Shown here piece by piece: positions 13,878 through 29,934 of a stretch of DNA of 45,681 nucleotides (the stretch's first letter is position 1; every line of letters begins with the position of its first letter). The position numbers and the translations under genes are program-made. A model generated the notes under the pieces. The model saw nothing but the letters and a program-made list of their open reading frames with translations. It was not told the DNA's origin and did not search any database. Source of the stretch: Patescibacteria group bacterium (lineage in GTDB: Bacteria > Patescibacteriota > Minisyncoccia > 2-02-FULL-40-12 > IGHO2-01-FULL-4-A); the NCBI GenBank assembly GCA_038064015.1, contig JBBTUB010000033.1, positions 1 to 45,681 of the forward strand. Reading direction: 5' to 3'.

Positions 13878-13891
13878 TATGCTTTATTTGA

Positions 13892-13921
13892 TATTCGCTT
13901 ATTCGCGCGAATTAGAGAATA
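13892..13921. repeat. 30-bp imperfect palindrome, uninterrupted copy
   Basis: TATTCGCTTATTCGCGCGAATTAGAGAATA with perfect core ATTCGCGCGAAT; second, interrupted copy at 14626-14689. Confidence 0.85.
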
Positions 13922-13926
13922 GAATA

Positions 13927-14622
13927 TCACGCGTACTCTATCATCTTTTTTTGCACTTTTTTATTTTGTTCCGAATGATTTTTCAGAAAATTATGGATCG
14001 CGTGAGAAGCGGCGGGGACAATGAGATTTTCTTTGGACAGTGCATGAGTAACTGAACTGTGGATAAGGTCAATCATCGGTGACGGAATCACTTCGTCGTT
14101 TTCACCAATGATGGTAAGTAATCGGCCTTTGAACTGTTTTAAGATATCCCATGCGTCAGAATCACGCCAGCTTTCAGGTTTCCGAATAATTTCCGTAAAC
14201 CCACCTCCAAATGGCACCGTATATGCCTCTTTACTATACATTGCCGGAGCGAAAAGAATCAAAGCTTGTATCGAAAATAATTCCAAAAGCTTCACGGCAA
14301 TATATCCGCCCATGCTTGACCCGCAAAGAATGAGTGGCAATCTGTTATGATGGAAATCAATTACTGCTTGAGCTTCATTGACTCGTTTCTCCAGACTTGA
14401 GTCGGTCAGCGTGCCGGAACTTTCTCCATGTCCGCTGAAATCAAACACCAAAACTGAAATATTATGCGCAAGCAAATTCGGAATTTGATATTCAAACCGT
14501 GAATGATCGCTCGTTCCCGCACCATGCAACGATACCAGCAATGCCTTCGGATTTTCTGCATTCCAAAATTTCGTAAAAATGGTTTTTGAATCGACGGGGA
14601 TTTTTTCTTCGGTTATATTCAT
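13927..14622 (-). CDS. Alpha/beta-fold hydrolase
   Basis: LHGAG, FDFSGHGES, nucleophile GSSMGG, GENDEVI, ASHAI (Ser-Asp-His triad). Confidence 0.92.
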   Translation of the reverse strand: MNITEEKIPVDSKTIFTKFWNAENPKALLVSLHGAGTSDHSRFEYQIPNLLAHNISVLVFDFSGHGESSGTLTDSSLEKRVNEAQAVIDFHHNRLPLILCGSSMGGYIAVKLLELFSIQALILFAPAMYSKEAYTVPFGGGFTEIIRKPESWRDSDAWDILKQFKGRLLTIIGENDEVIPSPMIDLIHSSVTHALSKENLIVPAASHAIHNFLKNHSEQNKKVQKKMIEYA

Positions 14623-14624
14623 GT

Positions 14625-15254
14625 TTATTCGCTTATTCCCTCCTCCGCCAAGGCTTCGGACGGGCGAGCGCGCGAATTAGAGATAGGATTTTTCCGAAAT
14701 TGCATAATATATGAACCGCTGTAAGTCTTGAGTGTGGTGCCCGAAAAATTATATTTTTGCCAAAGCTCAGTAAATTCTTTCGGAGTGAAGAATTGGCTTC
14801 CCAGACGCAAGATTTTTTCAAACACCACGACTCCCCAACCACGTAGCGTTTTAGGATTAAATTCTGCTACGACGACAGAACCCTGCGGGGCAAGAGCGCG
14901 ATAGGTCTCGCGGATTGCTTGCTCCTTGTCTCCGATATGATGAAATACATCGTGCATCATAACCAGATCAAAAGATGCGTTAGGAAAAGGAATTTGTTCG
15001 GCTCGTCCAAGGACGCACTCGATGCCACGCTTGGTGCATTCCGCAATCATCCCCGGCGACGGATCGAGGACAACGGCGCGCTTCACCCGAGGCGCAATCC
15101 ATGACAAAATCTTCCCCGTCCCTCCGCCAATATCCAGCACCGACATTGATTTATTCAAAATCCCCAGCTCTTCAAGCGCCTCGACAATCTCCTGCTTCTT
15201 CTTGCGGATATTGAAGTACCACGCCATTTTTGAAAAAAGTGAGTATTGGTTCAT
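14625..15254 (-). CDS. Class I SAM-dependent methyltransferase (type 11-like)
   Basis: VLDIGGGTG, LDPSPGM, AEQIPFPNASFDLV, FHH; last ~20 aa are encoded by repeat DNA. Confidence 0.9.
   Translation of the reverse strand: MNQYSLFSKMAWYFNIRKKKQEIVEALEELGILNKSMSVLDIGGGTGKILSWIAPRVKRAVVLDPSPGMIAECTKRGIECVLGRAEQIPFPNASFDLVMMHDVFHHIGDKEQAIRETYRALAPQGSVVVAEFNPKTLRGWGVVVFEKILRLGSQFFTPKEFTELWQKYNFSGTTLKTYSGSYIMQFRKNPISNSRARPSEALAEEGISE
14626..14689. repeat. Second copy of the 13892 palindrome, interrupted by a 31-bp element (14638-14668)
   Basis: TATTCGCTTATT[CCCTCCTCCGCCAAGGCTTCGGACGGGCGAG]CGCGCGAATTAGAGATAGGAT. Confidence 0.85.
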
Positions 15255-26556: not shown

Positions 26557-28210
26557 GTTCAATCGTGATAACGCGATCCGTATAATCAAGCGTACTTTGC
26601 CGATGCGCGATCGCCATAAAAGTATGATTTCCGGCGTCGTCTCGCAAAAGTTTCTCCATGATCTGCCGCTCAGTCTCGACATCAAGCGCACTAGTCGCCT
26701 CATCGAGAATCATGATAGGCGCGTTTTTATAAATCGCGCGGGCAATCCCGAGGCGCTGGCGCTCACCGCCGGACAGCATATAGCCCTTTTCACCAATCAG
26801 CGAGTCCACACCTTGGGCAAGCTTATCAATGACCTCACGAAGCTGGGAGACTTCAATTGCCCGTTCCAGGAGTACTGGATCAAGATCGCGCATCATCGTG
26901 ATATTGTCCTGGAGTGACATATTGAAAAGCTCGGTTTCCTGAAGCACGACGGAAACATGCCGCATTAAGTCCTCGTGCGAGATGTCGTAAAAATTAGTCT
27001 GGTCAACACCGAAGCTCCCCTTCTGAATTTTGTAGAGTCCAAGGAGAATTTTGACGAGCGAAGACTTGCCGCTGCCCGAAGTGCCGGCGATGCCAAGCTT
27101 TTCTCCTCGGCGCAACTCAAAATCAAAGTCCTGCATTCCTACTTGCCCCGATGGATACGCAAAATGCCCGCCTTGAATTGTAATCTTGCGCCAGTCTTTC
27201 GGAAACGCCGCCTTCCCCGTCGGCGCGTGCGTCTCCTCCCAAAAGATGGGCATCATATTACCAATGTCTGATTTGTAATCGATGAGGGACTCGTTCATAT
27301 CGCTCACATCCCAGAGCATTTCTTTGAGCCGATTCCAATAAGAGAAGAGCACCAGGATCGCTCCAATACTAATATGTCCCTGTACCACCCCATGGCCGAC
27401 AATAAGAAGAAAGATAATAAAAGAGGGGCCGTCGATGATGCGAAAGTATGTCCACTTGCGAAATCCCATCATGGATTTGACAATAGCCCGATTGCGAGTG
27501 TTTTCTTCCGCGCTTTTGACCCGATCTTGAAGCTGGATTTCACTTCCCAACGATTTGATCGCCAGCATATTGCCCGCACCTTCGACAAATACGCTGCCGG
27601 CAGATTGATCGAGGGTATTATATTGATCCGCGAGACGTCCGATTTTGCGATTAAAAATCCACTCGATCGTGGTAATGGTCGCCATAAACGCCACGATCAT
27701 AATGACCAGCGGCAAACTAAAGAAAGAAATTATCGTGATGAAACCGATCGTGTAGGTAAAAGCTTGGATCACGCGATTCTGATAAACCTTCATAAAGTCG
27801 CGCAACGCCTGTCCTCCGGTATAGATCCGCTGGATTTTAGATCCGCTGTTTTCTTTGGCATGCCATGTAAGTGAAAACTCCGTCAGCCGCTCAAATCCTA
27901 AGACGCGTGACCTCATGCGCATATGATGGGCAATCTTGGAGATGACCTTTTTACAGTTAATGCGCGCCATTGCCGCCAACGTGTAGGTAACGCCAAGCGT
28001 CACCACCAGGATATAAAACGGCCGCAGCGAATCGCCCGCTTGATAGGCAGTGAAAAAGTCGACGATCTTACCCACAAAAATCGCGGGAACAAGATCATAT
28101 AAAAATACTGGCACCAACATGAGCGAGACGGCGACAAATTTCGTCCGATCCCCTTCCAAGAAATACCAAATCGCTCGCGGTACATCGCGCCAGCGGAATT
28201 GAGTTTTCAT
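26540..28210 (-). CDS. ABC exporter, fused permease/ATP-binding (MsbA/MdlB-like)
   Basis: N-terminal TM domain; GTSGSGKS, LSGGERQR, ILDEATSALD, IAHR. Confidence 0.93.
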   Translation of the reverse strand: MKTQFRWRDVPRAIWYFLEGDRTKFVAVSLMLVPVFLYDLVPAIFVGKIVDFFTAYQAGDSLRPFYILVVTLGVTYTLAAMARINCKKVISKIAHHMRMRSRVLGFERLTEFSLTWHAKENSGSKIQRIYTGGQALRDFMKVYQNRVIQAFTYTIGFITIISFFSLPLVIMIVAFMATITTIEWIFNRKIGRLADQYNTLDQSAGSVFVEGAGNMLAIKSLGSEIQLQDRVKSAEENTRNRAIVKSMMGFRKWTYFRIIDGPSFIIFLLIVGHGVVQGHISIGAILVLFSYWNRLKEMLWDVSDMNESLIDYKSDIGNMMPIFWEETHAPTGKAAFPKDWRKITIQGGHFAYPSGQVGMQDFDFELRRGEKLGIAGTSGSGKSSLVKILLGLYKIQKGSFGVDQTNFYDISHEDLMRHVSVVLQETELFNMSLQDNITMMRDLDPVLLERAIEVSQLREVIDKLAQGVDSLIGEKGYMLSGGERQRLGIARAIYKNAPIMILDEATSALDVETERQIMEKLLRDDAGNHTFMAIAHRQSTLDYTDRVITIEHGTVI

Positions 28211-29934
28211 GCGATCTCCTGCTGATAACATGTCTCGCAATATATCACTTCTTGACGGTCTGGGGAATACGAAGTCTCAAATTCCTTGCCGCACTTGGCG
28301 CATTGGCGATGATAAAAGTGCGGGGGGTTGCGAAGCTTCAGGCGCTCGTAGTGGCGACAATTGGGGCAGAGGCGTGGCAGGGGGATTTGCATACGTCGGA
28401 GAAAAGTCAGTTCTTCGGGAATGATCCGAAACGCCCCCGTACATTCCTGGTCGCACTGCTCAGCGTGCACACAACCAAGCACTTCATTGAGAATCGTATC
28501 GGGTGCTTCTTTGATATGTTCCGGGAGCTTTGCGGCTGGGAGCGTCGCGGCATGTTTTTGACGCGCCGTTTCATACCATAGAAAGCCCCGCTCTTTTGCC
28601 TCTTCCTGATTCATAGGAAAAAATTCATACGCCTCGCTGATGCGGTACGGGAATGGCGAAAGCTCCGATGGAAAAAACTCGCCGTACTTGTATTCATGCC
28701 CCGCAGCGTCGGTATAGGGCATTTCTGTCATTTGGGATTTGATCTTTGCTATTTCCGCGAAGTACGCTTCGCGAGTGTACTGCTTGTTGAAAATGCAGTA
28801 CTGCTTGTTTCGCACGCCGATACATGCAAAGCAGTTGGAAACATTCCTGCAAAAAATGCTGTACTCCACATCCTTCACATTCACCATAACTTGTGAGCAA
28901 AAGCGTATGTTGGAAGCGCCCCGCCCGGAAATCAAAGTTTCGTAGCAGAGTTCCGCGCCTTCCCCAAAGTTTGATAAATCCCGGCAGTCTTTTACTGATT
29001 TTTCTAAGATATTTTGAGTATGCTTGCAATCCTCGGCACCGCGAACCCGATAGCAGTGCAAGGCATTTTTGGATTCGTAGATATAGTCGCCGCTGACGTT
29101 CACATTTTTCCACTCGTGCATAAATTTGTGCGGCTTGGTTTTCCAAAGCGCGCGCGCTGTGTCCTGAGCTTGTTGAAGGGCCGCATGCGATCCGAGATCC
29201 ATCTCGGCGATTTTTTTCAGATACTCCTCGCGCGAATACTGCTCATTAAAAATACAATATGACTTTTTCCGCAGCCCCACGCATCCGAAGCAATTATTGC
29301 ACCCCACGCAATCTTGGCACAATGTTACATCTTGGCAGGAATCACAATCAGCCGAGAAAAACGCTTTGTAGCAATGCTCGATGTTCACGCTCCCGTAGGA
29401 CAGATCGCAGTGGTCAGTCATGTGGCCATCCATGCACTGCTTCGATCCGTGATCCCATATGAGATAGGCCGAATCTTCGGTAAAAGTCGCCCCACGCACG
29501 AGATAGCAATTTTTACTGTCCGCGAGATTCATACAGTAGCGGCAGTTCACAAGATTGAGTGAAGAATGCGCCGGCTCAGGGACTTTCTCCATGAATGCTT
29601 TGAATTGCTCAAAAAACGGCCTCGAAAAATCATAGTCCTGGCCATAGTCCAGCGGATCCCATGCATCGGAAAACCAGTAGTCGCGATCAAAAATGGGAAT
29701 GGGGCTTTCTTCCGGAAAGAATGAGAATATCTCTTCTTGCCCCGCGGAGCCTTGGCGAAGTGGGGTTTTCTTGAAAAGATGCCAGCCGTTGCGCCAGCTC
29801 ATGCGCCGCTGGAAGCGGCAATCGGGACAAAAGGTGGGCGGCGGGACTTGGATTTTCTCGTAGAATGCAAAATCATCCGGCTCGATGAGGAAGTCTTTCT
29901 TACAGCTTTGGCATGTCCTTTGGTCTTTGAGCAT
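28207..29934 (-). CDS. Cys-rich protein paralogue P10 (575 aa)
   Basis: Family motifs; CDLCG knuckle replaced by repeat-derived PLRQGSAGQ. Confidence 0.92.
   Translation of the reverse strand: MLKDQRTCQSCKKDFLIEPDDFAFYEKIQVPPPTFCPDCRFQRRMSWRNGWHLFKKTPLRQGSAGQEEIFSFFPEESPIPIFDRDYWFSDAWDPLDYGQDYDFSRPFFEQFKAFMEKVPEPAHSSLNLVNCRYCMNLADSKNCYLVRGATFTEDSAYLIWDHGSKQCMDGHMTDHCDLSYGSVNIEHCYKAFFSADCDSCQDVTLCQDCVGCNNCFGCVGLRKKSYCIFNEQYSREEYLKKIAEMDLGSHAALQQAQDTARALWKTKPHKFMHEWKNVNVSGDYIYESKNALHCYRVRGAEDCKHTQNILEKSVKDCRDLSNFGEGAELCYETLISGRGASNIRFCSQVMVNVKDVEYSIFCRNVSNCFACIGVRNKQYCIFNKQYTREAYFAEIAKIKSQMTEMPYTDAAGHEYKYGEFFPSELSPFPYRISEAYEFFPMNQEEAKERGFLWYETARQKHAATLPAAKLPEHIKEAPDTILNEVLGCVHAEQCDQECTGAFRIIPEELTFLRRMQIPLPRLCPNCRHYERLKLRNPPHFYHRQCAKCGKEFETSYSPDRQEVIYCETCYQQEIA
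29736..29765 (-). repeat. 30-bp hairpin element in-frame in P10
   Basis: Minus strand CCCCACTTCGCCAAGGCTCCGCGGGGCAAG, same family as 14638-14668. Confidence 0.8.

Follow-up and report, generated by a model that had tools for sequence, protein, structure and literature searches.

A GC-rich hairpin repeat unit within a putative ArsR-family operator palindrome of a Patescibacteria genome

The locus and its split palindrome

The window analysed in the present study is the whole of contig JBBTUB010000033.1 (45,681 nucleotides (nt), forward strand) of the Patescibacteria group bacterium assembly GCA_038064015.1. It corresponds to contig C33 of a 743,627-bp genome, designated G000, which comprises 33 contigs and is 95% complete. 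The locus of interest contains a class I S-adenosylmethionine (SAM) methyltransferase gene, an alpha/beta hydrolase gene and a gene of a YdjM-family membrane protein, and the genes surrounding it are all located on the minus strand. An imperfect palindrome of about 32 nt, with 13-nt arms around a CGCGCG centre (CTATTCTCTAATT-CGCGCG-AATTAGAGAATAG), occurs here twice, intact ahead of ydjM (copy A) and split by a 31-nt GC-rich hairpin unit ahead of the hydrolase gene (copy B). It is likely that two unrelated short motifs are nested at this site, namely a putative operator palindrome of an ArsR-family protein and a unit of a GC-rich hairpin repeat.

Copy A is situated in the 49 nt that separate the hydrolase stop codon (13927) from the ydjM start (13877); its minus-strand sequence is CTATTCTCTAATTCGCGCGAATAAGCGAATA, followed by 16 nt and the ATG of ydjM. 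Copy B ends 3 nt ahead of the hydrolase ATG (14620-14622). A 12-nt part and a 15-nt part are common to the two copies, with exactly 31 bp between them in copy B, and the insert is placed 3 nt from the palindrome dyad, at the boundary of the gene-proximal arm and the CGCGCG centre. The original prediction had described the pair as the empty and the filled site of a precise insertion, with the host palindromes as direct repeats bracketing the hydrolase gene and the filled copy supplying the methyltransferase C-terminus. The sequence comparison bears this description out. At the insert junction the placement is ambiguous by 1 nt (C) and the target is not duplicated; the hydrolase open reading frame (ORF) lies between the copies, which are direct repeats because one palindrome precedes the hydrolase gene and the other precedes ydjM. 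The methyltransferase ORF reads through copy B and the insert to end as ...PISNSRARPSEALAEEGISE, and the end predicted without the insert is ...PISNSRE; relative to homologues, the last 19 residues of the protein consist of the palindrome and the insert. When the window was shuffled 100 times with its dinucleotides preserved, the expected count was 0.00 for the 26-mer and likewise for the 31-mer; for the 16-mer core, of which three matches were found, it was 0.07.

Table 1. Coordinates of the palindrome copies, hairpin units and neighbouring genes in the window.
Feature	Position	Strand	Description
Palindrome copy A, intact	13892..13924	-	Inverted repeat I2; plus strand from 13892 TATTCGCTTATTCGCGCGAATTAGAGAATAG
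Palindrome copy B, whole	14626..14689		Plus strand: TATTCGCTTATT + 31 bp (14638-14668) + CGCGCGAATTAGAGATAGGAT
Copy B, gene-distal piece	14669..14689	-	Minus strand ATCCTATCTCTAATTCGCGCG; encodes methyltransferase residues ...NPISNSR
Copy B, gene-proximal piece	14626..14637	-	Minus strand AATAAGCGAATA; holds the methyltransferase stop codon (14625-14627)
GC-rich hairpin unit, 31 nt	14638..14668	.	Plus strand CCCTCC-TC-CGCCAAGGC-TTC-GGACGGG-CGAG; separates both pieces of copy B
Alpha/beta hydrolase gene, 231 aa	13927..14622	-	Pfam Hydrolase_4, E 1.8e-19; between both palindromes
Class I SAM methyltransferase gene, 209 aa	14625..15254	-	Pfam Methyltransf_11; its frame spans copy B with the insert
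YdjM-family membrane protein gene, 150 aa	13425..13877	-	Pfam YdjM, E 6.8e-11; downstream of copy A
Second, more diverged hairpin unit	29735..29765	.	Inside the Zn-ribbon paralogue 28207..29934, peptide TPLRQGSAGQEE

The state of the site before the insertion is suggested by homologues of the methyltransferase, for which the search gave nine protein matches. The homologue P0003 (87% identical, from another metagenome assembly) ends with ...RRNAISNSRE, a tail that matches the protein end predicted for an uninterrupted CTCTAATTCGCGCGAATAA palindrome, i.e. for a site without the insert. In the seven other homologues the sequence finishes with ...QFRK and 0-2 further residues. When 40 relatives were searched at the DNA level for the orthologous locus, the two short motifs alone were recovered, without the genes. 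No close orthologues of the two enzymes were present in these relatives either, the best identities being 46% for the hydrolase and 38% for the methyltransferase, so that a comparison of filled and empty loci is not possible there.

Four groundwater metagenome runs of one study (X1-X4), represented by contigs only, were also inspected. The filled site was unchanged in contigs assembled independently from three runs (X1 record 7, X2 record 16 and X4 record 31), two of which may be the source of the window DNA, and the sole difference was another letter at 14709 in X4. The summed contig depth was about 470-510 over positions 13891-13925 and 8-10 in the flanks, and other community contigs match the window exactly from 13891/2 to 13923/5, giving sharp unit ends with unlike flanks. 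The Logan contigs of X1-X4 break at 13891-13925, and dozens of other community contigs carry the palindrome; this indicates that it is an assembly-breaking repeat in the groundwater community. A joint of 13923 to 14669 was seen in one contig each of X3 and X4, with sides of 24-25 nt. It was considered as an allele lacking the hydrolase and is read instead as another locus, where an intact palindrome has a B-type flank.

The hairpin repeat family

As was found by blastn-short and motif scans, the 31-nt family has six copies in G000: one on contig C9, two on C25, one on C22, the window insert and the diverged window copy. With up to two mismatches, the pattern CGCCAAGGCTTCGGNGGGC is present in 43 of the 61 genomes of the same order, in all four families, with 1-10 copies in each genome; the reversed-pattern control gave 0-1 matches. 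The exact pattern was also found in 18 IMG/VR stretches. The original prediction had supposed the 31-bp unit to be mobile and had proposed a genome-wide search for both motifs. Both recur as repeat families, and the unit stands as an insertional repeat, judging by its copies in G000 and the relatives, by the coincidence of the insert ends with the family ends and by the empty-site tail of the methyltransferase homologue.

Thirty-nine copies, chosen from 72 fuzzy matches on the requirement of a C-rich 5′ flank and a G-rich 3′ flank, form a gapless alignment (A1) with the consensus CCCNCC-TT-CGCCAAGGC-TTC-GGNGGG-CRRGC. The window insert fills the conserved block of this alignment (columns 5-35), which means that the whole unit was inserted. 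In the structure, a 6-bp stem leads through a 3x3 internal loop to a 3-bp stem tipped by AA; the CRRGC tail comes next, and 92.9% of cells pair. The covariation score is 0.159 versus 0.085 in shuffles, a value that none of 500 shuffles attains; slid controls scored 0.018-0.060. At pair 8-27, 18 copies have G:C, 13 have U:A and the remaining eight are other or unpaired; the rule by which the copies were selected favours C and G in the flanks, not the T:A exchange that carries most of the covariation signal.

Most of the aligned copies are located in ORFs. Stop-to-stop frames of 150 aa or more contain 30 of the 39, many of them deep inside; three are in frames of 90-149 aa and six outside. Five of the six frames are used (PSFAKASEGK, LRQGFGGQ, PPSPRLRRAG, LPAEALAKA and LARRSLGEGG), as are both orientations relative to the ORF (17 same, 16 opposite), and this combination indicates that the unit is conserved at the DNA level and not as coding sequence. 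In-frame copies occur in FolC, in an anti-sigma-like protein, in a Zn-ribbon paralogue and in many ORFs of the relatives. In FolC of G000, the hairpin unit (30 nt, LARRSLGEGR) stands in place of 15 nt in G001 and 12 nt in G002, and in the anti-sigma-like gene it replaces about 21 other nt of G001. At these spots G001 has other small inverted repeats, CATGAGT..ACTCATG and GAGCGG..CCGCTC (loci L112, the folC N-terminus, and L276, the anti-sigma-like gene). No alignment was obtained for the upstream regions of the C9-locus gene in G001 and G002. Contig C4 of G001 and contig C25 of G000, which have the same hairpin variant, were compared for synteny and are not syntenic. In the diverged window copy, the peptide TPLRQGSAGQEE occupies the place of the C-x2-C knuckle of other Zn-ribbon paralogues (TCDAGGEE or TCDLCGKK); at least 12 such paralogous (treble-clef) genes of about 540-575 aa, with small accessory genes between them, fill the minus strand of the window at 3400-35000.

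Two other readings of the 31-nt unit were considered. As the frame is open through the insert, the 31 bp could be ancestral coding sequence of the methyltransferase, the other palindromes then being deletion products; the original prediction had named this as one of two outcomes that would refute it. However, the insert-derived tail is missing in all eight homologues, one of which has the empty-site ending, more than 160 uninterrupted palindromes exist at other loci, and the same 31-mer is used in unrelated genes in five reading frames. The tail of P0003 and the number of uninterrupted palindromes argue that the 31 bp are not ancestral, and the probability of this reading is practically negligible. 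The unit could also be a functional RNA element (a terminator, stabiliser or regulator) between the methyltransferase and hydrolase cistrons. The covariation of the stem-loop would agree with that, and the C9 copy folds well (z = -2.58) and has a T-run next to it on one strand. But no T-run was found after the window copy, neither the hairpin nor the palindrome of the window folded better than shuffles as single RNA or DNA sequences (z from +1.93 to -1.59), and the Rfam search matched no family (best match E 2.2). The location of most copies within coding sequence also speaks against it, and the balance of orientations and the use of frames argue against a strand-specific RNA function, which makes an RNA element very improbable.

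The original prediction had suggested looking for enzymes of the HUH type or the REP-associated tyrosine transposase (RAYT) type (REP, repetitive extragenic palindromic). For the 31-mer, such a link was tested by a search with the Pfam Y1_Tnp model and was not found. Y1_Tnp matches are present in 31 of the 61 relatives, none of them near a listed hairpin copy (neighbours on the same contig are at least 3.6 kb apart). Compared by eye across the 61 genomes, hairpin and Y1_Tnp occur together in 24, the hairpin alone in 19, Y1_Tnp alone in seven and neither in 11. The Y1_Tnp ORFs of the relatives (G001-G059, up to six per genome) are mostly about 210-280 aa long versus 121 positions of the model, and usually match only its C-terminal two thirds.

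No conserved flanking or target nucleotides were noticed by eye around the 39 copies. Three of them are flanked on both sides by exact inverted repeats 8 nt or more in length (permutation mean 0.73; 12 of 300 permutations reach three). For one of these, in G011 (C30:27401-27474; L033/L273), the surrounding inverted repeat is perfect and 20 nt long (CACAAAAATAACATCCTTAA...), with the unit at its centre, and this is a second clear case of a hairpin nested in a palindrome. The 20-nt host repeat is unique in the five genomes searched, which contain no empty copy of it. A preference of the hairpin for palindrome centres is suggested, and the window case fits it. As a guess, the unit might move by template switching or by integration of single-stranded DNA hairpins at such centres.

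The palindrome and its candidate regulator

The canonical oriented form of the palindrome is CTCTAATTCGCGCGAAT-RRNN-GAATAG. With up to two mismatches, its 18-mer was found in seven of the 61 relatives, all of one family. The exact 17-mer CTCTAATTCGCGCGAAT gave at least 128 matches in Patescibacteria genome records, with Zambryskibacteria, Giovannonibacteria, Nomurabacteria, Sungbacteria, Kaiserbacteria and others among the titles of the matches listed, and was also found in three stretches of the viral collection. The analysis covered 131 fetched loci and 162 palindrome units, 96 of the latter being intergenic; 124 asymmetric units served for the analysis of orientation.

The gene most regularly associated with the palindrome is a small ORF of 86-94 aa. 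In G001, G002, G011 and G041 (all four of the 61 relatives that possess the gene), one palindrome is located upstream of this ORF and the other at or just past its stop codon, overlapping the stop codon in G001, G002 and G041. The ORF scores above the cut-off for Pfam HTH_5/HTH_20 (HTH_5 25-42 bits versus a cut-off of 22) and matches the solved structures of HlyU, NolR and CzrA over nearly the full length (E 2e-11 to 7e-7), as well as AspA. The alignment of the four orthologues revealed no cysteine and neither conserved metal ligands nor a His/Asp cluster. Strong orthologues (E about 1e-45) exist only in these four of the 61 genomes, and the arsR ORF is adjacent to the palindrome at 35 of the 131 loci. 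In G011, the next ORF listed beside the palindrome-arsR module is YdjM-like (a resemblance judged by eye). At L183:732-974 and L200:759-1046, a small ORF of the GIY-YIG nuclease domain (81-96 aa) directly follows arsR and its downstream palindrome. The hydrolase located beside arsR at L139 was checked as a relative of the window hydrolase, and the sequences are unrelated.

The palindromes are oriented towards genes. An ORF of at least 60 aa starts within 80 nt on the GAATAG side of 77 of the 124 asymmetric units versus 41 on the other side. Twenty of these 77 are arsR genes; the others encode cupin, NUDIX (2), acylphosphatase (2), GIY-YIG (2), EamA, SpoU and serine hydrolase proteins and many small unknown products. 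All three intergenic palindromes of G000 are oriented towards the genes downstream, namely the hydrolase gene, ydjM and, on contig C25, a 113-aa cupin gene that begins 8 nt after the site. This cupin is 53% identical to the one at locus L148. The association with ArsR and the orientation towards downstream genes support the reading of the palindrome as an operator, most likely that of a small ArsR/SmtB winged-helix protein devoid of metal sites, which would bind the palindrome.

The palindrome would then be the recognition site of the ArsR-like protein; in relatives it is found just upstream of the gene for this protein, again across the stop codon of that gene, and ahead of varied small accessory genes. 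One hairpin unit would have entered copy B at the boundary of the arm and CGCGCG, without target duplication, and would have parted the operator half-sites by 31 bp. It would also have moved the methyltransferase frame, changing the tail from ...NSRE to ...NSRARPSEALAEEGISE. Copy B would thereby be abolished as an operator.

A portion of the palindromes is located inside genes. In G000, one copy (C18:3045-3073, L002) lies within cysS (VFAYSRELEN) and is identical to copy A in 29 of 29 nt, and another (C23:37325-37357, L003) lies within guaA (ILSLIRANSGI). Four cysS orthologues have unrelated sequence of the same length at this spot, and G002 has a diverged but symmetric palindrome there; both same-genus orthologues of guaA have different sequence of the same length. 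In G002, guaA (L046/L047, G002:C8:22564-24233) is represented by two separate open frames covering residues 1-326 and 307-503, and it may be split or frameshifted. As revealed by Pfam, the genes that contain palindromes include mnmA (four genomes, at the same position), PPDK (2), Dus (2), MurD (2), alaS, tsaD, miaA, recR, murI, hsdS and others. Copies at the same position in different genomes were noted in mnmA (L129, L152, L160 and L241), PPDK (L162 and L201), dus (L170 and L209) and murD (L198 and L212), and the L160 palindrome is read in another frame than its three mnmA counterparts.

Alternative readings and related systems

Of the earlier proposals, the insertional 31-bp unit was upheld and the host palindrome as a delimiter of gene cassettes was not. 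According to the latter, the palindromes are recombination sites resembling lox/dif or attC, and the hydrolase gene is one cassette. The sites do lie exactly at gene boundaries, often over the upstream stop codon and 3-25 nt before the next start; three of them punctuate a run of small genes in G001; and their 13-6-13 layout resembles the core sites of tyrosine recombinases, where, as in lox and dif, two inverted arms surround a short spacer. The entry of the hairpin at the arm/centre boundary would be compatible with such a site as well. In L278, a related JGI contig, a Zn-ribbon gene comes immediately after the orthologous methyltransferase gene (product 85% identical), with palindrome, hydrolase and ydjM all missing. 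Its nucleotide homology to the window extends only to 14690, where copy B has its outer edge; the segment palindrome-hydrolase-palindrome-ydjM is therefore an indel relative to L278. However, recombination among the Zn-ribbon paralogues, whose order around the methyltransferase also differs in L278, could shuffle the intervening genes without a site-specific system. Recombinase, integrase or transposase domains were found in none of the 77 downstream and 36 covering ORFs, nor were HUH domains among these 113 ORFs at the 131 loci, where flanks of only 300-700 nt make the scan a weak test for integrases. The gene flanked most consistently encodes a DNA-binding regulator in a classic autoregulation layout, the sites are biased towards downstream genes and occur within conserved housekeeping genes, and the proposed check for loss of the hydrolase with a single palindrome left gave no such allele among the 40 relatives searched. 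Site-specific cassette exchange is possible but unsupported, and cassette boundaries are an improbable explanation of the palindromes.

The palindrome could alternatively be a selfish, REP-like mobile hairpin, with the ArsR-like protein as its DNA-binding accessory and no host regulon. Its distribution is patchy, since a single family among the relatives contains it and yet many distant Patescibacteria lineages do; its unit ends are sharp in the groundwater community; and units at unrelated loci are identical in 29 of 29 and 33 of 33 nt. The segments of cysS and guaA appear overwritten, differing in same-genus orthologues with the length unchanged, and there are perfect palindromic variants of 24-36 nt with symmetric changes in both arms, e.g., TCCCTAATTCG...CGAATTAGGGA in G011. 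On the other hand, the majority of the units are intergenic and oriented to start codons, a conserved cupin follows the site in two genomes, the winged-helix protein of about 90 aa has no catalytic domain, and the copies kept at the same position in mnmA and PPDK suggest retention rather than turnover. A selfish palindrome is thus considered unlikely. A low probability is likewise given to a general copy-and-paste of hairpin DNA of about 30 nt in Patescibacteria, proceeding without transposase and writing both motifs into or over local sequence. Such a process would be expected to prefer existing small palindromes and to leave the length unchanged where homology allows; candidate routes would be template switching at stalled forks or incorporation of single-stranded oligonucleotides, taken up or self-made. 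If it operated, a regulon would be rewired and housekeeping proteins edited at the same time.

Several observations weigh against the preferred reading, an ArsR-type operator split by an insertional hairpin. Regarding the palindrome, 34 of the 162 units lie in frames of at least 150 aa, about a fifth being inside conserved genes, a location that an operator role leaves unaccounted for, and it seems from the orthologue alignments able to overwrite 29-33 nt of coding sequence in cysS and guaA. The identity of 29-33 nt between unrelated loci, asymmetric flanks included, resembles copying and not selection for binding. A cognate arsR was not found in G000, whose only match is a 34%-identical paralogue without an adjacent palindrome; at 95% genome completeness, the cognate gene may have been lost or may have escaped assembly. 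A simple scan revealed no consensus promoter or terminator at either palindrome. As for the hairpin, in FolC and the anti-sigma-like protein it replaces 12-21 nt of native sequence and is not a clean insertion. A mobilising gene was not found, Pfam Y1_Tnp (PF01797) having no match in G000, and no empty copy B allele was seen in the metagenome contigs, which cannot show rare variants.

For the candidate phyla radiation, there are hardly any studies of how genes are regulated and how genomes change. Should the palindrome be an ArsR-type operator, it would provide a base-perfect pair of regulator and site and a first regulon sketch for many Patescibacteria lineages, with cupin, NUDIX, acylphosphatase, YdjM and hydrolase genes downstream of the site. 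The hairpin demonstrates that genomes of less than a megabase still carry an insertional repeat, which coding genes tolerate in any frame. This repeat lengthens enzymes such as FolC by about ten residues and, in the window, splits a putative regulatory site. It can serve as a concrete, datable marker of recent genome change.

A limited literature search found no description of either motif, and both were compared with known systems. The hairpin resembles REP elements mobilised by RAYT in being a short (20-40 nt), imperfect, dispersed hairpin with a conserved tail of a few nt, without target duplication and acting at the DNA level. REPs are extragenic, usually number hundreds, have a GTAG head and flank the rayT gene. 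In contrast, the 31-nt unit is mostly in open frames, is limited to a few copies per genome and has a CRRGC tail, and searches revealed a Y1 gene neither in G000 nor next to a hairpin copy; it thus lacks the extragenic location and the RAYT gene that define the REP/RAYT system. MITEs (miniature inverted-repeat transposable elements) have terminal inverted repeats together with a target-site duplication; no such duplication was found at the window junction, nor were conserved flanking nucleotides noticed by eye across the 39 copies. Like Rickettsia palindromic elements (RPEs), the unit is palindromic and lies in frame in protein genes, being translated as an extra peptide. RPEs are rickettsial and about 100-150 bp long, and the unit described here differs in its size, in its Patescibacteria hosts and in replacing rather than adding sequence in two cases. 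IS1397 and ISKpn1 are full insertion sequences with a transposase that insert into the centre of the palindromes of REPs or bacterial interspersed mosaic elements (BIMEs). The window likewise contains an element in the central part of another palindromic repeat, with the difference that the inserted element is a 31-nt hairpin for which no mobilising enzyme was found.

The palindrome differs from integron attC sites, which are about 57-141 bp long, have R and L boxes and lie near an integron integrase, both in its length of about 32 nt and in the lack of integrase domains in the short flanks scanned. The lox/dif architecture of 11-13-nt inverted arms and a 6-8-nt spacer is present, but architecture alone does not establish membership. 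ArsR/SmtB metal sensors have Cys or His/Asp ligand sets that are not conserved in the four orthologues of the ArsR-like protein. The nearest likeness is to the members of this family without metal sites, HlyU, NolR and PagR, which are winged-helix proteins of about 90-100 aa with an inverted repeat upstream of their own gene and further sites elsewhere; the putative operator described here is distinguished by a 17-nt site core that is base-identical across many lineages and occurs also inside housekeeping genes.

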